DNA of 32,000 bases from an uncultured bacterium (GCA_963704705.1 OY969931.1:540001-572000), one strand, 5' to 3'. Shown: positions 3-22,279, counted from the first letter of the stretch. The notes: a model not told the origin generated them from the letters alone. Numbers and translations: made by a program.

Positions 3-3000
3 GAACTTGCACAGTCAACAGGAGGCTTTTTTAGCTGCGGAAGTAAAGAAGTTACAACATTCACTCAGTTCCAGGGCGGTTTACAGCCACCTTCGGCTGA
101 AGGATATGATCCTACTCTTACACAGCAAACTGATCTAAGAGATTTCATTGTTAATGCAGTGAATTTTGTACTTGGATTTTTAGGCCTTGTTGCAGTTGTA
201 ATGGTAATCTACGGAGGATTCATGTATGTTACGGCCGCGGGACAGGAAGAGCAAACAACCAAAGGAAAGAAAAGCGTAATGTACGCGATGATTGGTATAG
301 TTATTATTCTTATATCTTATGCATTAGTTAATACAGTTATTAAAGGAGTCGGAAAAGGAACAGATGCTGGAATTAATTCCGGGACTCAGCAACTTGCAGG
401 AGCAGCTCCTGAAAATTTAACGGGTGATCAGACTCAGGCAATTCAAAGATTATTTTATGCTGCGGCATTGCAGGTTCAAAGAGCAGCTGAAGATTTGGCT
501 ACTAATTATTCTCATTATGTTGATGTTGACGATGCATTGGCTCAGCTTGAAGCAGTACCGTATGTTGATCGCGCAGACCAATTACATGTATTTTTAGGAG
601 ATATTAAACGTGCATTAAGTAATATTATTTCAGCTTCAGGTGAGTTGAGCAGAACTTCTGAAGCAGCTAAGTTTGCAGAAGATTATGTTGATACATTTTT
701 AAATCAATCTCAGCAGCAATTGACTGCTGATTGGACTACTTGGTGGTCGGACAACAGTGCTGATCTTCAATATGAAATAGATGCAATACTTACAGAGTCA
801 GGAGCAGAAGGTGAAAGTATATGGAAAGCAAATCTGCTTGATTTTGCTGATGCAGTTGAAAAAATCATTAGTAATTTAAATGATTTAAAAAAACAGATTG
901 AAAGCTCAGGATTAGTTACAACTTCTGAAACTGATTTTGGTGTAGCTTTTGATAGAGCTGTAAATAGTTTGGAAAATCTAATACCAATCGGTTTTGAAGT
1001 TCCGACAAATCAAAAAGTGATTGACGCACTTGAAGCATTAAGTGATTTACACACCGTGGTTCAGAACATCAAGTTTGTAGCAGCAATTATTAATGCGGAT
1101 GTTACTAAAGGCAATGCTCCGTTAATAGTAAATGTTGACGCACTTAATTCAGTAAGACCGGATTATGAAAGTATTAATCAGGATGATATTGAATGGGATT
1201 TTGGTGACGGAACCATTGTTGAAGGTAAATTCGCTACTTCTCACATTTATAGGGAAACAGGAAGTTTTGTAATTAAACTTACAATTAAAGGTGATTCTGC
1301 TAAAGGAATTGCTTCTGGTGTTGCTTATCAGGATGTTAAAATCGGTCCGCCTGCATCTCAGATTAATTTAAATGTAACTGTAGGAGACAGATTCCTTGGT
1401 TATTTGAGTTTCTACAAAGACGGATTCCTGGTTATAGATAAAAATAGATTAAACGTAACTTTAACAGAAGCCCGTGATATTGGTATTACATTTGATGCTT
1501 CTGAAACAAGAGGCGGTTCGCAGTCAGAACAGGAACAGGAAGCAGGAGGAACATATATTCAAACTGTTTCATGGGATTTTGGTGATGGAAGCGATACAAT
1601 ATTTGGAGAAATGGTTGCGAATGATGTACAAACACATTATTACGGTGAAGAGGGGACATATCCTGTTATAATTGAAGTTGTTGATTCAAGAGGAATTAGA
1701 GACAGAAAAGTATTTGAGGTAGTTGTTGATTCACCGGCAGCAAGAATTGATTTGAAGCCTGGAACAACAGCGAGAATTAATGAGGATGTAACATTTGATG
1801 GTGGTCAGTCTTCAACTGATGGCGGCCAGATTTCAGGTTACAAATGGAGTGTTTCAAATCCTCAATTAAAATATTCAGCGGAAGAAACCGATGAAAGTTT
1901 TACTAGTTCATTTGAAAGCCCGGGAGTTTATGATGTTTCACTAGTTGTTAGTGACAACCTGGGAAATACAGCAACTGATAATACGAAACTTAAAATTGAA
2001 TCAGAGCCTCCAAAGGCACAATTTACTTATTCAATTCAGAACCCGAGTAAACCGCACATTTATATGTTTGACGGAACTCAGAGTTTTGATCCGGACGGAA
2101 ATATACAAACAGGAACTTATAATTATAAATGGACAATAAATGCCGTGGATGATGATTATGATTTCATTAATCCTGAAACAGGCGAGTATGACCCTGATGG
2201 TGATAGTAAACCAAGAATGTATGTGAAATTTTATAGAACAGGCAATTACAAAGTTACTTTGGAAGTAGATGATGTTAATGAACCTGATAATCCTGGTATA
2301 CCGCAAGAACAAACAGTTAATGTTAATAGTATTTTGGATGTTGAATTTATGAATGTTGATTCTGGTGCAGCTGCTATTTTGAATGAGGACAGCGAAGCAA
2401 AAGTAAATCTATTGGGCTTTTCTGAAAACGCGGTTGCTTATGAATGGGATTTTGGTGATGGAAGCAGTCCGGTGTCTGGCGACATGATTTCAAATCAGGC
2501 TGCAATCACTCATACATATACTCAAGCTGGAAATTATGATGTAAGACTTTCGGTTTTTGATCGCGAAGATAATGAAAACAGTATTACACGAAGAATTGTT
2601 ATCGGCGAAGCTGATTCACCAATAGCCGTTATATCGGTTAAATCAGGTGATGTTGAGATTTATGATTTAAGTGAACCTATTGAAGTTAACAGAAAAACAG
2701 TTCTTTCATTTAGCGCTGAAAGATCTCTTAACCGTGATGGCACAGGAAGAAGACTTGCATATCAGTGGGATTTTGGGGATACAGACAGATCTACAAATAA
2801 AGATGCTACTCATAAATATAGTGATTTAAGCCCTAAAGATCCTGGTTATTATACAGTTACACTGAAAGTTCTCGATCAGAATGATCTAACAAAAACTTCA
2901 ATAGCAACAATGAGAGTTAATGTAATTGGAGAAACTCCAAAGTTACAGGCATTTACTGCTGTTCCCCAACAAGCAGATCTTACAACTCCGGTTAGAGTTA

Positions 3001-4355
3001 AGCTTGAGGCAATTGGTGCAGAAGATCCTGACGGTCAAATAGTAAAATATTTATGGTGGTATTATGATGAAAATGAACCGGATTTAACTTTTGGACATAC
3101 AATCACTCAAACTCCTCAGGCTTATATAACTATTGGAACCCGAGGTAAAGAAGGAGATGAAGTAACTTATAAATTTGGAGTTCAGTTAACGGATCAGGAA
3201 AACTTCACAGGAACTGCAAGCGATCTGTTACCTGAAAATCTTATCCCTAGTTTAACTGTTATTAATGGCCCTAACGATGTGCCTATATCAACATTCTCAG
3301 TTGATAGGACTTCTGTGTTGGTTGGTGAGGCAGTTAACTTTACCAGTGGTTCTTATGATCCGGATGGTAAAATTGTAAGTTATATTTGGGATGTTGAAGG
3401 AGATGGGTTCGGAAATAATGAACCAACAAATAATTCAACAATTGCTTATACTTATGACAAACCTTACCCGGACGGTGTAAATGTTAAATTAAAAGTTATT
3501 GATAATAATTATGCTGAATCTATTTCAAAACCAGTTAAATTATTCGTGGATGTTGTTTCACAAGATCCTGTTGCTGCATTTAGATATGAACTGGTTGGAG
3601 ATAATAAAATTAAATTTATTAATAATTCTACTGCAGATGAAGAAGCCGGAGCCAAGATTGATTCTTATCAATGGGATTTTGATATAAGCAGCGAAAATGA
3701 AAGCGCTGACAGTAATGGTGATGGAATTTTGGATAATGATAATGATTCTGAAGCGAAAGATCCGGTTTGGACCTATGAAAAACCAGGAATATATAGAGTA
3801 AAATTAAATGTATTTGATTCTTATGGAAAATCTGATGAAGTAATTAATTTTGTAAATGTTAGACCTCAAACAACTACAAGCACAGCAATTACCTCAACAG
3901 GTGATTTGGTGGCTGACTTTACAACTACACCTGCACCAGATCCTGACGGAGTGATTTATTTGTCAGGTGATTATGGTGATGTAAGTTTTGATTTCACAAA
4001 TTCCAAAGGAACAATAACTAAATATGTTTTTGATGATAATATATATGTTGATTCGGATAATGACGGAAGAAAAGCTGATGATCAAGATTACACAACAACA
4101 AAAAAAGGTATTTATACAACAACCTTTAATTCAGAAGATGATAAAATAAAAGTCAGACTTACTGTTTATGGTCCAAATGATTCATTTGATGTAAAAGAGG
4201 TGGAAATAAGTTTTAATAAAGGTTTAAACGAAACACAAGCGAATATATTAGGCAATACAAATATTCCATTGATACTTTTGAACCTGGCTATATTTGGTAT
4301 AGTTAGTTTAAGTCTTTATCAATTGTCGTTAAAAGAAGTTAAAATTAAAAAATAA
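3..4355 (+). CDS. Giant envelope protein, 5'-truncated by the window edge: T4SS-pilin-like (TrbC/VirB2-type) two-helix hairpin, helical linker, about 10 PKD domains, C-terminal TM anchor
   Basis: Frame 3 is open from nt 3, with no stop upstream of the track's Met at 159, so the real start lies left of the window. The segment DLRDFIVNAVNFVLGFLGLVAVVMVIYGGFMYVTAAGQEEQTTKGKKSVMYAMIGIVIILISYALVNTV has the helix - AGxxE/KxxKxK loop - helix pattern I recall from the 'type IV secretion system pilin' family abundant in CPR genomes. About ten repeats carry the PKD signature W(D/E)FGDG ... Y.V.L.V.D. The last 30 aa are a hydrophobic helix followed by KEVKIKK. Confidence 0.9.
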   Translation, partial: ELAQSTGGFFSCGSKEVTTFTQFQGGLQPPSAEGYDPTLTQQTDLRDFIVNAVNFVLGFLGLVAVVMVIYGGFMYVTAAGQEEQTTKGKKSVMYAMIGIVIILISYALVNTVIKGVGKGTDAGINSGTQQLAGAAPENLTGDQTQAIQRLFYAAALQVQRAAEDLATNYSHYVDVDDALAQLEAVPYVDRADQLHVFLGDIKRALSNIISASGELSRTSEAAKFAEDYVDTFLNQSQQQLTADWTTWWSDNSADLQYEIDAILTESGAEGESIWKANLLDFADAVEKIISNLNDLKKQIESSGLVTTSETDFGVAFDRAVNSLENLIPIGFEVPTNQKVIDALEALSDLHTVVQNIKFVAAIINADVTKGNAPLIVNVDALNSVRPDYESINQDDIEWDFGDGTIVEGKFATSHIYRETGSFVIKLTIKGDSAKGIASGVAYQDVKIGPPASQINLNVTVGDRFLGYLSFYKDGFLVIDKNRLNVTLTEARDIGITFDASETRGGSQSEQEQEAGGTYIQTVSWDFGDGSDTIFGEMVANDVQTHYYGEEGTYPVIIEVVDSRGIRDRKVFEVVVDSPAARIDLKPGTTARINEDVTFDGGQSSTDGGQISGYKWSVSNPQLKYSAEETDESFTSSFESPGVYDVSLVVSDNLGNTATDNTKLKIESEPPKAQFTYSIQNPSKPHIYMFDGTQSFDPDGNIQTGTYNYKWTINAVDDDYDFINPETGEYDPDGDSKPRMYVKFYRTGNYKVTLEVDDVNEPDNPGIPQEQTVNVNSILDVEFMNVDSGAAAILNEDSEAKVNLLGFSENAVAYEWDFGDGSSPVSGDMISNQAAITHTYTQAGNYDVRLSVFDREDNENSITRRIVIGEADSPIAVISVKSGDVEIYDLSEPIEVNRKTVLSFSAERSLNRDGTGRRLAYQWDFGDTDRSTNKDATHKYSDLSPKDPGYYTVTLKVLDQNDLTKTSIATMRVNVIGETPKLQAFTAVPQQADLTTPVRVKLEAIGAEDPDGQIVKYLWWYYDENEPDLTFGHTITQTPQAYITIGTRGKEGDEVTYKFGVQLTDQENFTGTASDLLPENLIPSLTVINGPNDVPISTFSVDRTSVLVGEAVNFTSGSYDPDGKIVSYIWDVEGDGFGNNEPTNNSTIAYTYDKPYPDGVNVKLKVIDNNYAESISKPVKLFVDVVSQDPVAAFRYELVGDNKIKFINNSTADEEAGAKIDSYQWDFDISSENESADSNGDGILDNDNDSEAKDPVWTYEKPGIYRVKLNVFDSYGKSDEVINFVNVRPQTTTSTAITSTGDLVADFTTTPAPDPDGVIYLSGDYGDVSFDFTNSKGTITKYVFDDNIYVDSDNDGRKADDQDYTTTKKGIYTTTFNSEDDKIKVRLTVYGPNDSFDVKEVEISFNKGLNETQANILGNTNIPLILLNLAIFGIVSLSLYQLSLKEVKIKK

Positions 4356-4365
4356 CTATATAATT

Positions 4366-6693
4366 ATGGATATTAATAATCCTCAAAATAATCAGTCTGC
4401 AGAGAGTTTTGGAACCGAATCGGTTTCTCAGCCAGCTGCGCCGACTTCACAAACACCGGCACAAGCACCAACACCGGCACAAGCACCAACACCGGCAACG
4501 CCACATGCGAATAATATGCCACCGGCAACGCCACCTGCACCTAAACCGGCTCCGGCAGCACCGGTTGCAAAACCTGCAACAGTAACCCCGGGTCAAAGAC
4601 CCGCTCCTGGAAGACCAGTTGTTTCACAGGAAGCATTAATACAAAGAGAAAGAGGCAGAAATAAAAAACTTTTAATTGGTTGCGGAGGAGCATTCGGATG
4701 CGGAACATTATTGTTAATGATTTTAATTTTTGTATTTGTGGGAGCAGCAGGAACAGGAACAAGCGCATTGGCTCAGGCACTTAATATTGATCAGGGGCAA
4801 CTTGTTAATTCACTTATTCTAATAGTTAATTTGTTTTTTGGAGTAAGTGCATTAATAGCATTTATCTTGTCAATCGGAGGAATTTTCAGAGCTGTTATGG
4901 CGCGCCGAGATGATAAAATCACAAAAAGAAAGGGTTATATTATGTCAGGAAGTTCATTTGGAATTTTGATATTAATTATAGTTATGTGGGTTGGAGCATG
5001 GTTTTATCTTACTTCACAACAGATTCCTCAAACGGAAATTAAACCCACAGGGCTTATAACTGTGCCTGTAGATACAACTAATTTAACTGCACCAATTGAA
5101 ATAACTTTTGATGCATCAAATTTACCTTATGATAAAGCGACATACGATATTATCTCTTATAATTGGGATTTTGGAGATGGCACACAGGGTCCGGGAAGCG
5201 ATGTTGAAACACATCTTTATGAAACAAAAGGTGATGGAAGATACGATGTAACTTTGACTTTGACGTTTGTAAATAAAAAGACAAGTGAAGAGAGCACACA
5301 ATCACTTACTCATACTGTTACTATTGCCGACGAACAAATTGTTGCAATAATTTCAGCAGATAAAACAGAAGGGGATATACCATTGACTGTAAACTTTGAT
5401 GGTAGTAAATCTTCTGATCCTGACGGCACTATAAAGAGCTATGCATGGGAAGTTGATGGTAAGGGATTTGAAGAAGGTGATCAAACTTTCTCTTATACTT
5501 TTGATAAAGTTGGAGAATATACCGTAAGATTGCGAGTAACAAATGTTGATGGAGACACAAATATTGATGAAGTAAAAATAACTGCAAAGCTTGGCAATAT
5601 GCCTTCACCAGTTATTAATATTTTAAATTCTGAAACTGACGGTAAATTATTTACTGGAAAATCTTATACTTTTGATGCTACCGGAACTGCCAGTCCTGGT
5701 GGAACAATCAGAAGTTATGATTGGGATTTCGGTGATGGAACTGCAAGTGTAAAAACAAGAACAGCACAGCACACATTTACATCAGCAGGCACATATAATG
5801 TTATCTTAACGGCAACTGATGAAGCAGGGGTTTCCGCTTCAAAAGAAATGAATGTTCAGGTAATAGTTGCACCTTCAGTACCTGTAGCAGTGATTGTTAC
5901 CAATCCAGCTAAAGCAAAACCGGATGATAACTTTATAGAAGGCGTCGCACCGTTTGAAGTTAATTTTGATGCAACCAGCAGTAATGATCCTGATGATGAT
6001 ATTATTGATTATCAGTGGGATTTTGACGGTGATGGTGTATACGATGCTGCTGGAGAAACAGTTAATCATACATTTAATACAGTTGGTAATTATAATGCAA
6101 CACTTGTAGTTATAGATTCAGCCGGATTTGAAGGCAAAAAGGTAATATTGGTGAAAGCAATTTCTCCGGGTCTTCAGACTTCGTTAACAGCTGACCCAGT
6201 ATCAGGAGTTGTACCTTTAACAGTTATTTTTGATGCAACTGGTTCAAAGTACGCTGACGGACAGATTGTAAGTTATGAATGGGATTTCGGAGACGGAACA
6301 CCAAGAAGAAGCGACATAGGTCAGGTTACTTATAAATATACAAAAATCGGTAACTTTACTGCAAAAGTTAAAGTTAGAACAAATGACAATAAAGAAAAAG
6401 AAGCTGAAATTTTAATTACAGTAAGGCAGGTTCCATTGGAATCATGTTTTGAACCTTCTAAAACAACCGGTGATGCACCACTGACATTAACTTTGAATCC
6501 TTCTTGCGCTACTGGTACAATAGCAACATACAAATGGGATTTTGGAGATGGTCAGACCTCAACAGAACGAAGACCTTCACATACCTTTGAAAATCCAGGA
6601 AGTTATGAGATTATATTGGAGGTTGCGGACGCACAGAATGTTGTTGATACCTCATCTCAATTTGTAACCGTAACAGGTGAATTAACCCAGTAA
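4366..6693 (+). CDS. Polytopic membrane protein: Pro/Ala-rich N-terminal tail, 3 predicted TM helices, 6 PKD domains
   Basis: 775-aa ORF starting 10 nt after the previous stop. The N-terminal ~100 aa are low-complexity (QAPTPAQAPTPATP...PPAPKPAPAAP). Hydrophobic helices: LLIGCGGAFGCGTLLLMILIFVFVGAAG, LVNSLILIVNLFFGVSALIAFILSIGGIF, FGILILIIVMWVGAWFYL. Six repeats follow with WDFGDG / WEVDGKG / WDFDGDG PKD signatures. Confidence 0.9.
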   Translation: MDINNPQNNQSAESFGTESVSQPAAPTSQTPAQAPTPAQAPTPATPHANNMPPATPPAPKPAPAAPVAKPATVTPGQRPAPGRPVVSQEALIQRERGRNKKLLIGCGGAFGCGTLLLMILIFVFVGAAGTGTSALAQALNIDQGQLVNSLILIVNLFFGVSALIAFILSIGGIFRAVMARRDDKITKRKGYIMSGSSFGILILIIVMWVGAWFYLTSQQIPQTEIKPTGLITVPVDTTNLTAPIEITFDASNLPYDKATYDIISYNWDFGDGTQGPGSDVETHLYETKGDGRYDVTLTLTFVNKKTSEESTQSLTHTVTIADEQIVAIISADKTEGDIPLTVNFDGSKSSDPDGTIKSYAWEVDGKGFEEGDQTFSYTFDKVGEYTVRLRVTNVDGDTNIDEVKITAKLGNMPSPVINILNSETDGKLFTGKSYTFDATGTASPGGTIRSYDWDFGDGTASVKTRTAQHTFTSAGTYNVILTATDEAGVSASKEMNVQVIVAPSVPVAVIVTNPAKAKPDDNFIEGVAPFEVNFDATSSNDPDDDIIDYQWDFDGDGVYDAAGETVNHTFNTVGNYNATLVVIDSAGFEGKKVILVKAISPGLQTSLTADPVSGVVPLTVIFDATGSKYADGQIVSYEWDFGDGTPRRSDIGQVTYKYTKIGNFTAKVKVRTNDNKEKEAEILITVRQVPLESCFEPSKTTGDAPLTLTLNPSCATGTIATYKWDFGDGQTSTERRPSHTFENPGSYEIILEVADAQNVVDTSSQFVTVTGELTQ
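4453..4503 (+). repeat. In-frame 18-nt tandem repeat (about 2.8 copies) ACACCGGCACAAGCACCA encoding (TPAQAP)n
   Basis: Two identical units at 4453-4470 and 4471-4488, plus a partial third unit, read directly from the sequence inside the Pro/Ala-rich tail of the 775-aa protein. Confidence 0.85.
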
Positions 6694-6695
6694 TT

Positions 6696-6812
6696 ATGGC
6701 AATTAATAAAAGACAAAAGAAAGTTGTACAAATAGTCGGACTTTTGGCTATAACAGCGATAGTTATTACAAGCTTTGCTCCAGCTATAGCAATTTTATTC
6801 TCACAGAAATAA
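6696..6812 (+). CDS. Small single-TM protein (38 aa), not in the ORF track (below its size cutoff)
   Basis: The ATG lies 2 nt after the stop of the PKD gene. Translation is MAINKRQKKVVQIVGLLAITAIVITSFAPAIAILFSQK*: a basic N-terminus followed by one hydrophobic helix, ending in TAA at 6810-6812. The position suggests translational coupling. There is no homology evidence. Confidence 0.4.
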   Translation: MAINKRQKKVVQIVGLLAITAIVITSFAPAIAILFSQK

Positions 6813-6826
6813 TTTAGAGCATAAAT

Positions 6827-6855
6827 TTGACCACGCAACTATAAAATGGTATAAT
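6827..6855 (+). promoter_or_regulatory. Sigma70-type promoter: TTGACC - 17 nt - TGgTATAAT (extended -10)
   Basis: TTGACC at 6827-6832, a 17-nt spacer, and TATAAT at 6850-6855 preceded by TG at 6847-6848. It lies 61 nt upstream of the ATG at 6917. Confidence 0.6.
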
Positions 6856-6860
6856 ATATT

Positions 6861-6881
6861 AATGGTATTGTACCATTTTTT
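6861..6881 (+). terminator. Short AT-rich hairpin plus T-tract (AATGGTA-ttg-TACCATT-TTTT): weak terminator of the PKD operon or a 5' stem-loop of the next mRNA
   Basis: A 7-bp perfect stem (6861-6867 / 6871-6877) is followed by a T run to 6881. An upstream copy AAAATGGTA (6843-6851) can alternatively pair with TACCATTTT (6871-6879). Confidence 0.3.
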
Positions 6882-6916
6882 AAATATTTAATTAAAAATA
6901 AATAACAAAAATAAAC

Positions 6917-9229
6917 ATGGAAAATCCTTTAGCCTCTATGCCACCTGAAGAAAATAAACCTGTTGAACCGGCGGTTCAACCAGCGCTTCAACCTGAAGCT
7001 ATGCCTGCGAAAGAAGGTGTAAAAGCAAAAAAGCCTTTCTTCACTAAAGGTAAAATCATTGCAATTTTTATAGGACTTGTGGTAATTGCCGCAATAGTTG
7101 GAGCAGTGATTTATTACCAGAGTGCTGAACAATTTAAAGGAGCAAGTTTTACAACTGCACCAGTAACAACTACTGTTCAGTCCGTTACAACAACTGTACA
7201 AAAGCCTGTTGTAACAACAACACAACCAGTTGAAAAATGTGTATCTGATAAAGGTTTGGGAGAAGGCGGTCATAACGTTTATGGCTGTGTTTGTAGTTTG
7301 GATGAAAGAACAGAAAATCCTGAAATCTGGGATCCAATTGATAGAGTATGGACTCAAGACCCTAATCCTTATCCAAATCCTTGTGTATGTCCTGATGATA
7401 AACCTATTTGGGACAGCACAAATAAAGTTTGTACAACAATTACATTAGCTCCGCTAGGAGTAACTACAGTTCAAATTCCACCGGAAGAAACAACTGAACC
7501 TGGAATTTCAACTCTTAGACCTCAAATTACAGATAGACCTCAGATAACCATTCCTAAAGAAGAAACATGTGAGAATACATCAGCTACTGCGGATTTAATT
7601 ACAGCTTACAACCAAAGAAACTGGGATGCTTACCAAGGAGCTTTGCAAAAACTTGATGATCTTGCTTGTATTGACCCATGTAAATTAAATATTTATTGGA
7701 CAATCTTTTATTTAAATACAAATAATTTAGACCAGGCAAAAGTTCAATTCGCTACATTTAAAAAGAATTGCGGAACCAATTGTAATTTATATTTTGGATA
7801 TGTTGGAATTGTTGCTGAAATTTTGAGTGAAATTGATCAAAGGGCTCAAACATTTACAGCTGCCAAACTGCCTGGATTAACAGATGATCAGCTTGATTTC
7901 TTGCGTCTTGTTGCTGAAGGTTATATAAATAGCTGTCAGTGTGTTGAATTGAATCAATTATTAACAAATCCGGTTCAGACATTGGATTCGTATTTTCCGG
8001 CCAATGTAACCAGCGCGATAGATCTTAATGCAGCGAAAGAATTGGCTCCAAGTACATTGTCTACTAATCGATTAAATTCAGGTTTAACAGTTGCTTACGC
8101 ACAAAGTTATTCACCTTCAGTTCAATCGGTTTTACAAAGTGTTTTGGACACAAAATGTCCTCCTGAGATAAAAAAAGAACCTAAAAATTGTGAAGCTTTG
8201 AATATAAAAGCACCTTACGATGTTGAAACATATGTTATGCCTGATTTGTTTAATCCTTCTGCAAATACACTCTCAATTGAAATAGTGGGTGGAGAAGACA
8301 ATATTCAGGATTATAAGTACACATCAAATAATTCAACTGTTAAATTTGACGGAACAAGCAGCTCATACAATACTTCAAATAAATCCGTAACTTTAAGTGG
8401 CGGTCCAAATGAAGGTGAATCAGATAAAATCACTGTTACTGCTGTTGATAAAAGTGGTCTTCCTTTAAAAGAATGTACAGATACAGTTACAATTACAAGA
8501 CCGAAAGCTGATCAACCAATTTGTAGATCACTTACAATAGTTGAACCTAGCGATGCTAATCAGGCTGGTACTCCAACAGTTGAAATAGATTCACCATATA
8601 ATAATGAAGTATTAAAAGTTAAGTTAGATGCTGACGCAGGAACATATGATGATTTAAGATTTACTTCAGATAACGGAAATATAACATTTGATGGTCAGGG
8701 CGTACTTGATACAACTTCATTAGAAGTGAAAATGAACGGTGCACCACCTGAAGATACAGAAGAATTAGTTACTGTATGGGCAAGAGCAAAATCCAGAGAC
8801 GGAAGCTATACTGGGATTAAAACATGTACTGATGCATTTATTGTAAAACTAGCAGGAGCACCTCCAACACTTACTTATGTACCCCCTACAAAAGATGAAG
8901 AGCCACCTCCAACATTAACTTATGTTCCACCTACTACAAAAGATGAGGAACCACCTCCGGTGATAACTTATGTCCCGCCTACAACAACTACAACGACAAC
9001 AACAGAACCAACACCTACAACAACTACAACAGTTACTACTTCAACTCCAACTGAACCTACACCGATTTATGTTACTCAAACTCAGCCACAGCCAACAATA
9101 GTTACAACAACTACACCGGCAATACATACGGCTGCACCTACTACGCCTTCAACAGGGCCGGAATTGTTTATTCCATTATTGGCTACAGCAATTGGAGGAG
9201 CCTGGATTAGAAGAAAAAAGAAAAAATAA
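6917..9229 (+). CDS. Surface protein: Pro-rich N-tail, signal-anchor TM, Thr/Val-rich stalk, Cys-rich and helical region, two Cys-bounded Ig-like repeats, PPTLTYVPPT(T)KDEE repeats, poly-Thr, sortase-type C-terminal sorting signal
   Basis: 770-aa ORF. TM helix IIAIFIGLVVIAAIVGAVIYY. An internal duplication is marked by ...KECTDTVTITRP... and ...KTCTDAFIVKLA... The C-terminus TPSTGPELFIPLLATAIGGAWIRRKKKK is an xPxTG motif, then a hydrophobic helix, then a basic tail. Confidence 0.9.
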   Translation: MENPLASMPPEENKPVEPAVQPALQPEAMPAKEGVKAKKPFFTKGKIIAIFIGLVVIAAIVGAVIYYQSAEQFKGASFTTAPVTTTVQSVTTTVQKPVVTTTQPVEKCVSDKGLGEGGHNVYGCVCSLDERTENPEIWDPIDRVWTQDPNPYPNPCVCPDDKPIWDSTNKVCTTITLAPLGVTTVQIPPEETTEPGISTLRPQITDRPQITIPKEETCENTSATADLITAYNQRNWDAYQGALQKLDDLACIDPCKLNIYWTIFYLNTNNLDQAKVQFATFKKNCGTNCNLYFGYVGIVAEILSEIDQRAQTFTAAKLPGLTDDQLDFLRLVAEGYINSCQCVELNQLLTNPVQTLDSYFPANVTSAIDLNAAKELAPSTLSTNRLNSGLTVAYAQSYSPSVQSVLQSVLDTKCPPEIKKEPKNCEALNIKAPYDVETYVMPDLFNPSANTLSIEIVGGEDNIQDYKYTSNNSTVKFDGTSSSYNTSNKSVTLSGGPNEGESDKITVTAVDKSGLPLKECTDTVTITRPKADQPICRSLTIVEPSDANQAGTPTVEIDSPYNNEVLKVKLDADAGTYDDLRFTSDNGNITFDGQGVLDTTSLEVKMNGAPPEDTEELVTVWARAKSRDGSYTGIKTCTDAFIVKLAGAPPTLTYVPPTKDEEPPPTLTYVPPTTKDEEPPPVITYVPPTTTTTTTTEPTPTTTTTVTTSTPTEPTPIYVTQTQPQPTIVTTTTPAIHTAAPTTPSTGPELFIPLLATAIGGAWIRRKKKK
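8861..8990 (+). repeat. Three in-frame tandem units (45-48 nt) encoding PPTLTYVPPT(T)KDEEP / PPVITYVPPTTT
   Basis: Units start at 8861, 8906 and 8954. The peptide repeat is nearly identical while many third codon positions differ (for example CTTACT vs TTAACT, GTACCCCCT vs GTTCCACCT). Confidence 0.8.
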
Positions 9230-10036
9230 TTAAATAAACTTTGAGAGCGGTCCGTGAGATATCGGGCCGCTTTTTAATTCTATTCCAAGTGCCACGCACA
9301 AAACTTCGCTCATATGCATAACCGGCATGTTGAATCCTTTTTGATAAAAATCAAACTGCATGTGGCAAAAAGGGCAGTTGGTAATAATTAAATCAGCTTC
9401 GCCTTCAGCTGCATCACGCAAATATTTATCGCTCATATGGGTTGATGCCTTTTTGTTATACATTCCAATGTGGAATCCGCAGCAATCAAGCTTTGAAGGT
9501 AAATCAACCGGAGTTGCACCCAGAGCTTCAACAAATTCTTCAAAATTAAATGGATTTGCAGTGTTTTGGTGATCTTTTACGTATTTTGAAGGCCTTAAAA
9601 TATGACAGCCGTAGTATGTTGCAATTTTTAAGCCTTTTAGAGGCTTTTTAACTGCCTTTTTAAGCTTTTCTATGCCTAAATCCTCTGTAAGTACCCAAAG
9701 CCAGTGTTTAACGTTAAAATCAGTGAATTTGCCTTTTTCTCGCTGCTTAAATAAGTCTTTTCTCAAATTTATTACACAAGTCGAACAAATGGTCATAATA
9801 TCTAGCCCCTTTGCCTTACTATATTTAAAATTCCGTTCATTCATATCTTCATTAAATTTAGCATCAACTTCTTTAACTACTCCAGCTCCGCAGCAGCTAA
9901 ACTCAGGAATATCAACCAGTTCGATTCCAAGTTTTTTGCATGCGAGTCTTGTAGCTTTATCATATTCAGATGTAAGCTGTTTGCTCGCGCATCCGGGAAA
10001 ATACGCATACCTTATTTTTTCTTCATTTCGTCCCAT
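9230..10036 (-). CDS. CCG-domain (HdrB-like) subunit of a type-E succinate dehydrogenase / fumarate reductase (SdhE / TfrB C-terminal-half-like)
   Basis: 268 aa with two cysteine-rich CCG motifs: YFPGCA...EFSCCGAG and YYGCHILR...KLDCCGFH...NCPFCHMQ. It overlaps the upstream sdhB-like gene by 25 nt. Confidence 0.8.
   Translation of the reverse strand: MGRNEEKIRYAYFPGCASKQLTSEYDKATRLACKKLGIELVDIPEFSCCGAGVVKEVDAKFNEDMNERNFKYSKAKGLDIMTICSTCVINLRKDLFKQREKGKFTDFNVKHWLWVLTEDLGIEKLKKAVKKPLKGLKIATYYGCHILRPSKYVKDHQNTANPFNFEEFVEALGATPVDLPSKLDCCGFHIGMYNKKASTHMSDKYLRDAAEGEADLIITNCPFCHMQFDFYQKGFNMPVMHMSEVLCVALGIELKSGPISHGPLSKFI
9247..9275 (+). terminator. Rho-independent terminator for the 770-aa gene, embedded in the 3' coding end of the convergent CCG-subunit gene
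   Basis: GCGGTCCG (9247-9254), loop tgagatat, CGGGCCGC (9263-9270; 8 bp including one G-U pair), then TTTTT (9271-9275). It begins 18 nt after the TAA at 9227-9229. Confidence 0.6.
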
Positions 10037-10908
10037 TTTTTAACTTTTTTAATAAATAGGGGAGGGAATTTGCCTTTTAAAAGCATTTTTATAGCAAGCG
10101 GAAGCATTTTTACTGCTCTAAATGGACCCCAGGTTCCAAGCGGCAGTTTAAATTCTTCAATTTCTCCTTTTCGCATAACTGATTTATAGATTGTTTTTGC
10201 ATGTCTTGCTCCGTCATTATTTGTAATACCTTCTTTTATTGAACTTTCACGTAAATGAGAAATAACATCTTGCGGCTCAATATCCTGAGGGCAGTTTTCA
10301 CTGGCTTTTTCACAATGAGCACACATCCAGATTTGCTTTTCTACAAGCTGTTTTAAGCGTTCACGTTTTGCCCCGTCACGTACATCATCAATGTAGCGTT
10401 GGGCCAGAACTGAAGCAGCCGGCCCCAAGTATTTTCCTGAAGCATCACGTGAAGGACAATCAGAAAAACAAGCAGCGCACCAAATACATTCAGAGGATTT
10501 TTCAATTTTTTTCACATCTTCAGGCATTACCTTAACATCACGCATTTCATCAAACCATGGTTTTACCGCTTCCATTTCAGCATAAAAAGGTTTCATGTCC
10601 ACAATCAAATCTTTAATAATTCTTAAATTTCCAATAGGTTTAATGCGCACTTCTCCAAACTCCGCAATTTCATTTTTCAAAAAAGTTTTGCATGTTAGCC
10701 TGGCGCGGCCATTAACAACCATTGAACAAGAACCGCAAATACCTGCTTTACACGCATGTCTGAATCCGAGTTCAGCGTCATGTTTTTCTTTAATTAAAAT
10801 TAGTGCATCCAAAACAGTTAAATTTTCATCATACTCAATTTCATACTCTTTAAAGTAAGGTTTTTCGTCTGTTTCCGGATTAAATCTTTGAATTTTAATC
10901 TTTATCAT
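10012..10908 (-). CDS. sdhB: Succinate dehydrogenase / fumarate reductase iron-sulfur subunit
   Basis: 298 aa. 2Fe-2S motif CKAGICGSCSMVVNGRARLTC. Ferredoxin-type clusters CIWCAACFSDCP and CAHCEKASENCP. It overlaps the flavoprotein gene by 14 nt. Confidence 0.88.
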   Translation of the reverse strand: MIKIKIQRFNPETDEKPYFKEYEIEYDENLTVLDALILIKEKHDAELGFRHACKAGICGSCSMVVNGRARLTCKTFLKNEIAEFGEVRIKPIGNLRIIKDLIVDMKPFYAEMEAVKPWFDEMRDVKVMPEDVKKIEKSSECIWCAACFSDCPSRDASGKYLGPAASVLAQRYIDDVRDGAKRERLKQLVEKQIWMCAHCEKASENCPQDIEPQDVISHLRESSIKEGITNNDGARHAKTIYKSVMRKGEIEEFKLPLGTWGPFRAVKMLPLAIKMLLKGKFPPLFIKKVKKWDEMKKK

Positions 10909-12463
10909 AATAAATAAAAGAATGTTTTTTAAAGTTTTGGTCGTCCCTCTCAGGATAATCCGTTCTATAATGAGCTCCGCGGCTTTCTTTGCGTTCTATT
11001 GCGGCTTTTAAAATCGCCTCTGCTATATCGAGCATGTTTTTAAGTTCAAGAGTGTTATAAAAACTAAAGTAATAAGGCGAACTGTTATTAATCTGAATAT
11101 TTTTATATCTTTCTTTTAATTCTTTTATGGATTTCAAGCCCTTAAACAATGAATCTTCATGCCTGAAAATGCCTGCGCTAAGCAGCATTTCGGTTTTTAA
11201 TTCATTTTTGATTTCATATGGATTTTCATTACCTTTTTCATTTAAATATTCCGGTTTTTCATGATTTTGTAATATGTTTGCTGGTGTGTTTTTTACGTAT
11301 TTCGTGGCATTTTGTCCTGCTTTTTTGCCAAAAACAACTGTTTCCATTAATGAATTGCCTCCGAGTCTGTTTGCTCCGTGGATTCCTGCGCAAGCGCATT
11401 CTCCGGCTGCAAATAAACCTTTAATTTCTGTTTCGCATTCTTCATTTGTTGAAATTCCTCCCATAAAATAGTGAACTCCCGGTTTTACCGGAATTGGCTG
11501 TTTTGTACAGTCTATGTCTGCGAATTCTTTTGCTATTTTATGGATTTGGCTTAATCTTCCCAAAACAACATCATCATCAAGATGCCTTAAATCCAGGTGA
11601 ACTGCTCCATCAATTCCACGGCCTTCTTCGATTTCTTTTTGGATTGCTCTGGCAACAATATCTCGTTCAGCAAGTTCATCAACAAACCGCTCACCATCTT
11701 TATTAATAAGATGAGCGCCTTCACCTCGTGTACCTTCTGAAATTAGCAAAGGCCTGTGATGAAGTGTTGTTGGATGAAACTGAACGAATTCGATATCTTT
11801 AAGTGCGCAGCCGGCACGATAGGCGAGTGCCATGCCGTCACCAGTTGAAATAGTTGCGTTAACTGTATTTTTAAATATCTGACCAGCGCCTCCGGTAGCC
11901 AAAATTACAGCTTTGGCCTGAATGGCATAATGCTCCCCGGTTGAAATATCATAGGCAGAAAGGCCAATAATTTTTCTGTCTTCAACAATCAATGAATCAA
12001 CAAACCACTCATCTAAAAATTCAACATTATTTTTTAAACATTGTGTATATAAAGTGGTAATTAAATTATGACCTGTATAATCGCGTGAATAACAGGTTCT
12101 AACTTCGCTGTTACCGCCAAAAGGTCTTTGAGCAATTTTGCCATCTTTAGTTCTGCTGAAAATCATTCCCATTTTCTCTAAATCTTCGATAGCTTCAGGT
12201 GCTTTTTCACAAAAATGCTGAACTGCTAAATTATCGCTTAAATCATCGCCGCCTTTTATTGTGTCTTCAATATGCGCTTTAACTGAACCATTTACAGCTG
12301 CGTTCATACCGCCCTGAGCCATACAGGTTTGGCTGCGTAAAGGGTGAACTTTTGAAATAATGCAAACTTTAAGGTCTTTTTCGCAGTTTAAAGCCGCTGT
12401 TAAACCTGTTCCGCCTCCGCCAACTATTACAATGTCATATTTTAATTTATTCATAGCCTGCAT
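10895..12463 (-). CDS. sdhA: Succinate dehydrogenase / fumarate reductase flavoprotein subunit; the real start may be the second Met at 12454
   Basis: 522 aa. Dinucleotide fold YDIVIVGGGGTGL. Active-site motifs FVQFHPT, EGTRGEGAHL, HYFMGGI, GANRLGGNSL, ESRGAHYRTDYPERDD. RSQT replaces the canonical RSHT covalent-FAD site. Confidence 0.88.
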   Translation of the reverse strand: MQAMNKLKYDIVIVGGGGTGLTAALNCEKDLKVCIISKVHPLRSQTCMAQGGMNAAVNGSVKAHIEDTIKGGDDLSDNLAVQHFCEKAPEAIEDLEKMGMIFSRTKDGKIAQRPFGGNSEVRTCYSRDYTGHNLITTLYTQCLKNNVEFLDEWFVDSLIVEDRKIIGLSAYDISTGEHYAIQAKAVILATGGAGQIFKNTVNATISTGDGMALAYRAGCALKDIEFVQFHPTTLHHRPLLISEGTRGEGAHLINKDGERFVDELAERDIVARAIQKEIEEGRGIDGAVHLDLRHLDDDVVLGRLSQIHKIAKEFADIDCTKQPIPVKPGVHYFMGGISTNEECETEIKGLFAAGECACAGIHGANRLGGNSLMETVVFGKKAGQNATKYVKNTPANILQNHEKPEYLNEKGNENPYEIKNELKTEMLLSAGIFRHEDSLFKGLKSIKELKERYKNIQINNSSPYYFSFYNTLELKNMLDIAEAILKAAIERKESRGAHYRTDYPERDDQNFKKHSFIYYDKD

Positions 12464-12470
12464 ATATTAG

Positions 12471-12508
12471 AAAAAAGCCGCCCTTAATGCAAGGACGGCT
12501 TCTTTTTT
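12471..12508. promoter_or_regulatory. Symmetric terminator-like hairpin flanked by A6 and T6, in the divergent sdhA / tRNA-Gln intergenic region
   Basis: AAAAAAGCCGCCCTT-aatgc-AAGGACGGCTTCTTTTTT. The stem is 11 bp with one mismatch. It is read as hairpin plus U-tract on both strands. On the minus strand it ends about 8 nt before the sdhA ATG. Confidence 0.45.
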
Positions 12509-12533
12509 AATCAACTATTTATTAATAGAAATG

Positions 12534-12562
12534 TTGACTTCATTTGATTATTTACTTAAAGT
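12534..12562 (+). promoter_or_regulatory. Possible promoter for tRNA-Gln: TTGACT - 17 nt - TAAAGT
   Basis: TTGACT at 12534-12539 and TAAAGT at 12557-12562. The tRNA 5' end lies 20 nt downstream. The -10 matches the consensus at only 4 of 6 positions. Confidence 0.35.
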
Positions 12563-12581
12563 TATTTCTGTTTGAATTCAT

Positions 12582-12656
12582 TGGGGCGTGGCCAAGTGGT
12601 AAGGCACCGGGTTTTGGTCCCGGCATTCGGGGGTTCGAATCCCTCCGCCCCAGCCA
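12582..12656 (+). tRNA. tRNA-Gln: tRNA-Gln (anticodon UUG), CCA encoded
   Basis: Manual cloverleaf. Acceptor stem TGGGGCG/CGCCCCA with the U1-A72 pair typical of bacterial tRNA-Gln. U8. D arm GCC-AAGTGGTAA-GGC. Anticodon stem CCGGG/CCCGG with loop TT-TTG-GT. T arm GGGGG-TTCGAAT-CCCTC. Discriminator G, then CCA. Confidence 0.95.
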
Positions 12657-12671: not shown

Positions 12672-13139
12672 ATGAGAGATAAAAGATTTATTGCGAAGCA
12701 TCGTGGAGGGCTTTTGGCGATGGACCAACATAAGCTTTTGATTAAATGGTCTTATCTATGTGTGGAACACGTTTTGTCGCTTTTAGGTCAGCTAATTGAT
12801 TCAAGAATATTGAATGCGATTTCCGTGGCAAAAGAGTGGGAAAAGGGTAATGTTAAAACTGGCGTGGCGATGAAAGCTGCAGTTGAAGCACACTCGTTAG
12901 CAAGAGAATCTTCCAACCCTGTTGAAATTGCTATTGCTCGTGCGGCTGGCCATGCAGTAGCTACCGCACATATGGCAGACCATTCATTGGGTGGTGCTCT
13001 TTATGCTTTGAAAGCTGTTAAATACGCAGGTCGTCCTATTGACATAGAAAAGGATTGGCAAAATCGAAAGGTCCCGTTAGAACTAAAAGATCTTGTATTG
13101 GAAACATTGATGGTTAAAGGAAAAAGCTTTAAACTGTAA
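12672..13139 (+). CDS. Helical protein resembling the 'putative immunity protein' (Imm5-like) family, often mis-annotated as exonuclease SbcC
   Basis: 155 aa. The pattern ...CVEHVLSLL...AISVAKEWEKGNV...AAVEAHSLARE...AIARAAGHAVATAHMADHSLGGALYALKAV matches my recollection of that family (consensus like RAAAHAAATAHMAAHALGAAAYAAKA). Recognition is from memory only. Confidence 0.55.
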   Translation: MRDKRFIAKHRGGLLAMDQHKLLIKWSYLCVEHVLSLLGQLIDSRILNAISVAKEWEKGNVKTGVAMKAAVEAHSLARESSNPVEIAIARAAGHAVATAHMADHSLGGALYALKAVKYAGRPIDIEKDWQNRKVPLELKDLVLETLMVKGKSFKL

Positions 13140-21233: not shown

Positions 21234-21866
21234 TTACAAGTATTTTTTTGAACTTGGACAAATATTGTTTAATTTACAGTCCGCGCATTTTGGAGTAGGA
21301 GCTTTACAAAGTGCTCTGCCGTGATCGACAAAATAATAAGATAGCATTCCCCAGTCTTTTTGTTTATAAAGCTTCATTAAATCACGTTCGATTTTTACAG
21401 GATCTTGATGTTTCGTCAGTCCAAGTCTGTTTGAGATTCTTATCACGTGCGTATCAACAATCACTCCTTCGTTTTTGCCATACCAAACAAACAAAATTAC
21501 ATTTGCAGATTTTCGTGCAATTCCTGGAATTTTAATCAAATCTTCCATATTATCCGGAACTTCACCATTGTATTTTTCTAAAATAGTTTGTGCAGCTCCT
21601 TTTATGTTTTTCGCCTTATTTCTAAAGAAACCAGTTGATCTAATTTTTTGTTCAAGTTCATCTAAAGAAACTTTAGCAAAGTCATCAATTGTAGGAAGTT
21701 CTTTAAAAAGTGGGGGAGTTACCAAATTAACTCTTTTATCAGTACATTGAGCAGATAAAATTGTTGCAACCAAAAGCTCCCAAGCACTTGTAAAATGCAA
21801 TGCACATTTTGCATTCGGATACATTTTGCTCAGTCTGTTGAAATATTCGTATGCGTATTTTTTCAT
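21234..21866 (-). CDS. nth: Endonuclease III (HhH-GPD DNA glycosylase with 4Fe-4S cluster)
   Basis: 210 aa. [16 protein letters not shown], the HhH motif [26 protein letters not shown], and the C-terminal cluster [17 protein letters not shown]. Confidence 0.93.
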
Positions 21867-22279
21867 CTTTCTCCCATTACTTTAACAATTACACGTTTTT
21901 TTCGGCGACCATCAAATTCAGCATAAAAAATCCTTTCCCATTGGCCCAAATCTAATTTACCTTCGGTTATAGGAATTATTGCCTGATGACCAATCAGAAT
22001 TCGTTTTAAATGGGCATCAGCATTATCTTCACCCGTTTGATGATGTCTATAATTTTCACCATATGGAGCCAGTTTTTCAAGCCATTCATGGATATCTTCG
22101 ATTAAACCGTTTTCCAAATCATTAACATAAACTCCTGCAGTTATATGCATCGCCGAAATCAGACACATTCCTTCCTTAACTCCGCTTTCAGCAACAATAT
22201 CCGCAACTTCATCAGTAATGTGTACTGTGTCATAACGGTTTTTTGTATTGAACATTAAATATTCGGTGTGCACTTGCAT
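21863..22279 (-). CDS. yjbQ: YjbQ/UPF0047 family protein (secondary thiamine-phosphate synthase type)
   Basis: 138 aa. [15 protein letters not shown]...[11 protein letters not shown]...YRHH...[10 protein letters not shown]...[26 protein letters not shown]. An ATGA overlap links it to nth. Confidence 0.88.

Follow-up and report, generated by a model that had tools for sequence, protein, structure and literature searches.

What does a relative of respiratory complex II exchange electrons with in a cell that cannot supply it with a self-made quinone? The question is raised by a stretch of 32,000 nucleotides (nt) from the complete genome of an uncultured bacterium (GCA_963704705.1, OY969931.1), which carries an operon for an SdhA-like flavoprotein, an SdhB-like iron-sulfur (Fe-S) subunit and an HdrB-like subunit with CCG domains (SdhE). 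We refer to the whole stretch as the window; it corresponds to C1:540001-572000 of the genome, and coordinates of the subunits are positions within it. The three open reading frames (ORFs) lie on the minus strand and overlap by 14 nt (sdhA/sdhB) and 25 nt (sdhB/sdhE). An earlier note on this DNA had described the same three-gene operon with the same overlaps, and our ORF calls and Pfam and NCBIfam assignments agree with it. The genes are as follows:

10895..12463, minus strand: sdhA-like flavoprotein gene, 522 aa, assigned with Pfam and NCBIfam
10012..10908, minus strand: sdhB-like Fe-S subunit gene, 298 aa, with the C-terminal extension of the family present
9230..10036, minus strand: sdhE-like double-CCG (HdrB-like) subunit gene, 268 aa, with two CCG domains

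The reading we favor, to which we would give slightly less than an even chance, is that these genes encode a cytoplasmic, one-way fumarate reductase of the SdhABE type, which would be independent of quinone, most likely fed by a thiol, and used as a small redox sink and a means of fumarate disposal. The analysis established gene content and motifs, the fold, the inventory of the genome and the distribution of the operon; direction, donor and physiological role are our inferences.

We began the argument with the host, which is a member of the Peregrinibacteria within the candidate phyla radiation (CPR). CPR bacteria are usually described as fermenters that lack a tricarboxylic acid cycle or electron transport. 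The closest homologues of all three subunits come from entries labelled "Candidatus Peregrinibacteria bacterium" or "Patescibacteria group bacterium", and the flanking surface-protein genes are typical of CPR. The genome is a single, closed contig of 1,374,545 bp with a GC content of 35.5%, and is 99.4% complete. Absences were read from Pfam-level searches of the complete genome, and every family search included positive controls. The genome had no match to UbiA-type prenyltransferases (the family of MenA, UbiA and MqnP), complex I antiporter subunits (Proton_antipo_M), cytochrome bd, the Sdh_cyt haem-b anchor, class I fumarase, the Ldh_1_N malate/lactate dehydrogenases, MvhD/FlpD (PF02662) or the DcuA/B C4-dicarboxylate carriers. 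PyrD belongs to class 1B, the NAD-linked kind, and is accompanied by PyrK, so there is no quinone-type (class-2) dihydroorotate dehydrogenase (DHODH). Because TrxB is the only full Pyr_redox_2 (PF07992) protein besides SdhA, the genome also lacks a type 2 NADH dehydrogenase (NDH-2), HdrA and any GltD-like protein. This inventory speaks against a self-made quinol pool as the donor. The earlier note had supposed a CPR host with neither quinone synthesis nor a respiratory chain, and all of this was borne out: the closest homologues are in Peregrinibacteria and Patescibacteria records, the UbiA-family prenyltransferase is absent from a nearly complete, closed genome, and complex I, NDH-2, cytochrome bd, class-2 DHODH and Sdh_cyt are all missing. 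The inventory and the closest homologues gave no sign of menaquinone synthesis with a respiratory chain, or of a contig from outside the CPR.

The flavoprotein carries evidence for direction. SdhA consists of FAD_binding_2 and Succ_DH_flav_C domains, where FAD is flavin adenine dinucleotide, and scored 644 bits against TIGR01812 (cut-off 567). When aligned to E. coli FrdA and SdhA, the catalytic residues H230, S242, E243, R267, H331 and R366 were found to be kept, and an active-site threonine was replaced by serine, as it is in Veillonella. The histidine to which FAD is covalently attached in the E. coli enzymes is replaced by glutamine:

12329..12331, minus strand: Gln45 codon at the covalent-FAD histidine position (E. 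coli FrdA H44 / SdhA H45), in the motif RSQTCMAQGG

Glutamine occupies this position in all of about 24 sequences of the Peregrinibacteria clade, which are 52-100% identical. The histidine (RSH[ST]) is kept in about 45 non-CPR relatives, and the residue is alanine in Veillonella and in a second CPR family, f42. We placed these sequences in a tree by a quick maximum-likelihood search (LG+G4), which did not include bona fide TfrA, MfrA or Sulfolobales references. The Peregrinibacteria clade was monophyletic with a support of 100, f42 was separate, and Veillonella together with a 4.1-Mb "Patescibacteria" genome, which also has alanine at this site, formed a third group. Because the three groups lacking the histidine are separate in the tree, we conclude that the covalent-FAD histidine has been lost independently at least three times. 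The 4.1-Mb genome in the third group ("Patescibacteria group bacterium SMAG_U13152", record DATMYQ010000152.1; locus L063 of genome G594) has two UbiA-family genes and an SdhA that is sister to that of Veillonella. Its label or bin looks wrong, and the record was left out of all CPR counts.

The consequence of losing this histidine is known from characterized enzymes. Covalent attachment raises the potential of FAD by about 100 mV and is required for succinate oxidation (PMC10238741). The SdhABE enzyme of Wolinella succinogenes, an 8-methylmenaquinol:fumarate reductase (MFR), has alanine (Ala86) at the FAD site, binds FAD non-covalently, and reduces fumarate without oxidizing succinate (PMC2680327). 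The clade-wide change from histidine to glutamine, together with the retention of the catalytic residues, suggests that the window enzyme would likewise work only in the direction of fumarate reduction, which supports the direction proposed in the earlier note. SdhA also has no N-terminal twin-arginine translocation (Tat) or other signal extension, as the maximal ORF begins nine residues before the FAD fold (residue 10) and contains no twin-arginine motif. Further, no 19-residue stretch resembling a membrane helix was found in SdhA, SdhB or SdhE (Kyte-Doolittle maximum of 1.3 or less). Because there is neither a signal extension nor a membrane-helix-like segment, we predict that the complex is cytoplasmic. 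A different identity for the flavoprotein, L-aspartate oxidase (NadB), was rejected: SdhA scored 432 bits against TIGR00551, below the cut-off of 452.75, and a separate, true NadB with an above-cut-off score of 528 bits is encoded at C1:840863-842311. The locus around that gene (L001, C1:834000-848000), in this genome without a quinone prenyltransferase, also encodes enzymes of the shikimate pathway (3-deoxy-D-arabino-heptulosonate 7-phosphate synthase, AroB and an AroA-AroK fusion) and, adjoining nadB, a TrhP/UbiU-like U32 protein.

The Fe-S subunit was found to be altered at its distal cluster. SdhB has Fer2_3 and Fer4 domains, scored 233 bits against TIGR00384 (cut-off 88), had PRK12576 (231 bits) and PRK12577 (219 bits) among its best matches, and gave an AlphaFold 2 model with a predicted local distance difference test (pLDDT) score of 90.5. 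Two segments of SdhB bear on its partners:

10288..10323, minus strand: distal-cluster motif CAHCEKASENCP, SdhB residues 196-207, with the third cysteine of the type-E motif CxxCxxCxxxCP changed to alanine
10015..10125, minus strand: basic amphipathic SdhB tail, residues 262-298, the only candidate segment for docking to a membrane or partner

The third cysteine of the distal motif is gone from 8/8 Peregrinibacteria copies (CAHCE[KR][AS][ST]ENCP, or C-x2-C-x6-C-P). In the f42 copies (3/3) it is the second cysteine that is gone, which leaves an E. coli-like pattern of three cysteines, and the four-cysteine CxxCxxCxxxCP was kept in 23/23 non-CPR relatives. The distal cluster of SdhB is probably now held by three cysteines, as judged from these motifs. 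The tail has a mean hydrophobicity of 0.23, a hydrophobic moment of 0.49 and a net charge of +4, with helices predicted at residues 262-267, 269-277 and 292-297.

SdhE contains two CCG domains (PF02754, E 6e-29), and its best matches were MFR SdhE (179 bits) and HdrB (163 bits). Both CCG motifs are complete:

9776..9991, minus strand: first CCG motif, C16 ... C48C49 ... C84xxC87, five cysteines invariant in 71 homologues
9365..9607, minus strand: second CCG motif, C144 ... C185C186 ... C221xxC224

All ten CCG cysteines were invariant across the 71 homologues. The AlphaFold model of SdhE (pLDDT 92.4) matched HdrB (8rwn_B and 5odc_B) in Foldseek with template modeling (TM) scores of 0.83-0.85 at 30-33% identity; we found no solved structure of any type-E SdhE. 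All three subunits are shorter in the genus of the window, where SdhE is also missing two internal segments and its conserved C-terminus.

We then considered how widely this operon occurs and whether the missing membrane anchor is informative. The operon was present in 8 of 13 genomes of the window's own family, spread over three genera. A search of about 188 genomes from 18 other families of the same order did not detect it, and in a 400-genome sample of the phylum a homologue occurred in three genomes, all from f42, which makes the operon rare in the CPR, at about 1% of that sample. UbiA-family genes were lacking in six of the eight SdhABE-positive family genomes, three of these six being 97-99% complete, and in each of the three f42 genomes; the other two of the eight have them. 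Based on this distribution, the enzyme has persisted through divergence at the genus level in lineages that lack a quinone prenyltransferase. The order sdhA-sdhB-sdhE without a fourth gene was seen at 10 CPR loci. The same three-gene layout was found at about 60 non-CPR loci (Nitrospina, Veillonella, Dehalococcoidia, Thermoplasmata, Deltaproteobacteria, Thermovibrio and others), which belong to quinone-containing bacteria and archaea. In one f42 genome the operon is split (L026, G315:C67, 2068-6669), with a UPF0047 gene between sdhA and sdhB, a gene for a Vut_1 vitamin-uptake transporter between sdhB and sdhE, and all genes on one strand.

No hydrophobic or anchor gene was seen adjoining sdhABE in the window, where the neighbors are a surface-protein gene, a tRNA-Gln gene and an Imm5-like gene; on this point we agree with the earlier note. 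A hidden anchor or partner gene was also sought by synteny and rejected, as the 11 CPR loci share only SLH/PKD surface proteins (in the window's family, f1) or 5-formyltetrahydrofolate cyclo-ligase (in f42). None of the 11 loci has HdrA, MvhD, Flx or FrdD/E as a neighbor. The earlier note had stressed that no SdhF or other anchor gene adjoins the operon and had proposed a possibly soluble or peripheral enzyme; the weight of the missing anchor needs correction. The layout is shared by about 60 loci and by the Wolinella MFR, which has three subunits and no SdhF and is loosely associated with the membrane (PMC2680327). Absence of an anchor gene is thus normal for the family and is no evidence of solubility.

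Comparison with known systems places the enzyme in the broad SdhABE, or type-E, complex II superfamily as judged by its predicted dicarboxylate active site and by a 10-cysteine double-CCG subunit that follows sdhB and replaces the haem-b anchor. Its closest characterized system is the MFR of W. succinogenes and Campylobacter jejuni (Juhnke et al. 2009, PMC2680327). The two share a three-gene sdhABE without SdhF, a C-terminally extended SdhB, a 10-cysteine CCG subunit without membrane helices, which is the best NCBIfam match of the window SdhE, and the replacement of the covalent-FAD histidine, which in MFR goes with non-covalent FAD and an enzyme that works only as a fumarate reductase. In contrast to the window enzyme, MFR is periplasmic and has a Tat signal, has alanine rather than glutamine at the FAD site, and keeps four distal cysteines instead of three. 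The window subunits scored 462/1100, 174/600 and 179/500 bits relative to the equivalog cut-offs of NF042982, NF042952 and NF042965, and the window host makes no menaquinone. The succinate:quinone reductase (SQR) of Sulfolobales and relatives, SdhABE(F), which belongs to type E, shares the subunit families and the CCG subunit (Hamann et al. 2009, PMC2754724). That enzyme binds FAD covalently, has a fourth cysteine by which a second [4Fe-4S] replaces [3Fe-4S], often includes SdhF, and oxidizes succinate with a quinone as acceptor (PMC2754724). Having neither the RSH[ST] histidine nor the four-cysteine motif, the predicted window enzyme is not a type E SQR in the strict sense.

Thiol:fumarate reductase (TfrAB) of Methanothermobacter (EC 1.3.4.1; NF004900 / NF004898) offers the best functional analogy and would serve as the model for a thiol donor. 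It is soluble and cytoplasmic, as predicted for the window enzyme, and like that enzyme it is free of an anchor, comes from a quinone-free host, and has flavoprotein, Fe-S and double-CCG modules in the same order. The Fe-S and CCG modules are fused in TfrB, whereas here they are two ORFs in different frames that overlap by 25 nt. The TfrA score was 513/718 bits, and TfrB scored 181/385 bits on the Fe-S protein with its CCG half scoring 59 bits on the other protein. Coenzyme M and coenzyme B are not expected in a bacterium. With regard to the label "type-E / thiol:fumarate-reductase-like" given in the earlier note, the sequence thus lies nearer to SdhABE and MFR than to TfrAB, given the sub-cut-off scores and the lack of a fusion. 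Soluble fumarate reductases (FRDs) coupled to other redox modules form a further point of comparison. A five-subunit NADH-FRD of Hydrogenobacter thermophilus was reportedly described as a soluble fumarate reductase by Miura et al. in 2008 (cited in PMC13147460). A soluble FRD linked to Flx-Hdr has been proposed for Pseudoclostridium thermosuccinogenes (PMC7282089). These enzymes resemble our proposal in quinone-independent, cytoplasmic fumarate reduction and in CCG/Hdr-type subunits that link FrdAB to a redox module, and differ in that they need FrdD/E, HdrA, MvhD or Flx, none of which adjoins the window operon. SdhA of Aquificota is about 50% identical to the window SdhA.

Taken together, these results suggest the following route. 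Electrons would enter at the HdrB-like CCG subunit SdhE, travel along SdhB's three Fe-S clusters to non-covalent FAD in SdhA, and reduce fumarate to succinate. The donor is not expected to be a self-made quinol pool, because the genome has no quinone synthesis and no recognizable quinone reductase. It would most likely be a thiol or dithiol oxidized at the CCG clusters, as in TfrB or in HdrB working in reverse, which by analogy fits the HdrB-like fold and the quinone-free setting. The only thiol system that we found in the genome consists of one classical thioredoxin and one TrxB, and we found no candidate thiol donor besides this thioredoxin, which TrxB and NADPH would recharge. The fumarate could come from adenylosuccinate lyase and an ArgH-like lyase, and possibly from import through the single CitMHS/TrkA_C anion permease of the genome or an amino-acid permease encoded near the operon. 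The two lyases are the only Lyase_1 proteins in the genome: PurB, whose gene is part of a purC-purE-purB cluster, and the ArgH-like protein of 613 aa. There is therefore no class II fumarase or aspartase. The ArgH-like lyase (C1:205549-207390; L003:3550-5391, minus strand) has an N-terminal extension of about 190 residues without a Pfam match and is co-operonic with proB, proC and proA. Without a fumarase, fumarate would otherwise be a metabolic dead end unless NadB uses it. The proposed role is thus a small redox sink and fumarate disposal route, as opposed to an energy-conserving respiratory complex.

Several points weigh against this proposal. The CCG subunits of characterized SdhABE enzymes, the Wolinella MFR and the Sulfolobales SQR, are linked to quinone and not to thiols (PMC2680327, PMC2754724). 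The window SdhE scores comparably against MFR SdhE (179 bits) and HdrB (163 bits), and no disulfide reductase for a low-molecular-weight thiol was found in the genome. Lipids are obtained by CPR bacteria from their hosts, and quinones could be acquired as well. The residue after the FAD site is glutamine (AQGG), as in SdhA, instead of the glutamate of E. coli FrdA, a difference that we take from work on FrdA E49 and SdhA Q50. For a redox sink, PurB and ArgH would supply only a small flux, and the activity of all CPR copies is predicted from sequence. Finally, PurB and NadB are present in all family members, with or without sdhABE. We rejected disposal of PurB-derived fumarate, or service to NadB, as the purpose of the enzyme, as neither correlates with the operon. 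Because of this lack of correlation, the enzyme would be an accessory redox sink that is not obligatory for nucleotide or NAD synthesis.

The most conventional alternative is that the window encodes an ordinary peripheral-membrane quinol:fumarate reductase of the MFR or type-E kind, which uses menaquinone-type quinones scavenged with lipids from a host or partner. We consider this unlikely. Every SdhABE enzyme characterized so far is linked to quinones (PMC2680327, PMC2754724), SdhB's basic amphipathic tail is conserved throughout the family and could dock on a membrane, the Veillonella flavoprotein that lacks the histidine sits among quinone-containing bacteria in the tree, and UbiA-family genes occur in two of the eight SdhABE-positive relatives. 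However, a scavenged quinone would find no upstream reductase in the genome among complex I, NDH-2, class-2 DHODH and a cytochrome-b-linked hydrogenase, and no quinone-dependent oxidase (cytochrome bd) either. Two CPR lineages have also independently altered the distal cluster that faces the donor, suggesting a changed partner, and SdhE has genus-level deletions and a truncated C-terminus. Such deletions, which also affect SdhA and the cluster motif, could instead be signs of a succinate dehydrogenase, an enzyme with another substrate or a decaying, role-less remnant of a horizontally acquired operon, and the patchy distribution (8/13 in the family, 0/~188 in the rest of the order and 3/400 in the phylum sample) fits gain followed by loss. 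We think this very unlikely, as all three ORFs are intact at every locus, and the catalytic residues, the 2Fe-2S/4Fe-4S ligands and the 10 CCG cysteines are kept in copies that are only 50-57% identical, which points to long purifying selection. Succinate oxidation is itself improbable without the FAD histidine and a high-potential acceptor (PMC2680327, PMC10238741).

A partner other than a thiol has also to be weighed. About 35-39 kb before the start of the window (C1:500921-505411, L116), the genome encodes a cytoplasmic group-3 [NiFe] hydrogenase made up of a large subunit of 440 aa and a small one of 189 aa, plus maturases. Its genes share an operon with those for HydG and a HypC-HydE fusion, and diaphorase, beta/gamma and ferredoxin-like subunits are missing. 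The HdrB-like subunit or the SdhB tail might dock a protein partner, chiefly this two-subunit hydrogenase, to give a soluble H2:fumarate oxidoreductase, or fumarate reduction might be driven by ferredoxin or flavodoxin. The hydrogenase consists of its two subunits and maturases with no electron-transfer subunits of its own, and it is present in 8/8 SdhABE-positive genomes of the family compared with 2/5 SdhABE-negative ones, and in 3/3 f42 genomes against a phylum background of 81/401 (20%). A precedent exists in methanogens, where the Mvh hydrogenase feeds an HdrB-containing Hdr complex (5odc), and Hdr-linked soluble fumarate reductases have been proposed (PMC7282089). Nevertheless, the hydrogenase and sdhABE genes are about 47 kb apart and were non-syntenic in every locus seen, the co-occurrence amounts to two independent lineages with two hydrogenase-positive relatives that lack sdhABE, and the known coupling modules, MvhD/FlpD and an HdrA-like flavoprotein, are absent from the genome. 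Its function may simply be to release H2 with electrons from ferredoxin or flavodoxin. We therefore judge a hydrogen-, ferredoxin- or flavodoxin-driven enzyme to be unlikely.

The thiol-fed fumarate reductase that we favor bears on how CPR bacteria rebalance their redox carriers. MFR already has this operon layout, a CCG subunit and non-covalent FAD; what is unusual here is the quinone-less host, Gln45, the three-cysteine distal motif and the predicted cytoplasmic location. In the literature we found no description of an sdhABE operon in Peregrinibacteria, Patescibacteria or CPR, and the only CPR complex II that we found discussed is a type-B enzyme of a respiring Parcubacterium (PMC5220378). 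The FAD histidine and a distal cysteine, each lost repeatedly, are concrete residues to probe. If the true donor is a thiol, thioredoxin or hydrogenase, thiol:fumarate-type chemistry would extend from methanogens to bacteria and would constitute a new fermentative electron sink in ultra-small symbionts. A bolder idea, which we regard as speculative and improbable, is that two CPR lineages independently rewired SdhABE for quinone-free life by losing the covalent flavin link and a ligand of the donor-facing cluster and by taking hydrogenase or thioredoxin as the partner of the HdrB-like subunit. The product would be a soluble H2:fumarate or NADPH-thioredoxin:fumarate oxidoreductase, a type of enzyme not previously described.

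The surroundings of the operon are dominated by surface-protein genes. Upstream of sdhA is a short non-coding stretch, followed by a gene for tRNA-Gln(TTG) at 12582-12656 (plus strand) and an Imm5-like immunity gene at 12672-13139:

12464..12581, minus strand: upstream non-coding stretch, the expected site of the operon promoter, given by position only

A promoter scan upstream of sdhA gave a single weak sigma-70-like match at 12576-12547, and matches in this region were no better than chance. In several relatives the position of the tRNA-Gln gene is taken by a gene for an SLH-domain surface protein on the strand of sdhA. Downstream, a convergent gene for a 770-aa surface protein ends where sdhE ends (stops at 9229/9230). 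Because the two stop codons abut, a single hairpin may end transcription of both genes, from both sides; a strong terminator-like hairpin with a 12-bp stem, seven G-C pairs and a T-run lies at 9243-9274 (plus strand), 3' of the 770-aa gene and within the last ~15 codons of sdhE. The 770-aa protein, which had no Pfam match, is the third of three large, consecutive surface proteins encoded at 159-9229 (plus strand); two of the three have PKD repeats, and one of those two has a T4SS-pilin-like N-terminus. The synteny of these surface-protein genes and sdhABE, in convergent orientation, is kept across three genera. Elsewhere in the window, a UPF0047 gene is located at 21863-22279.

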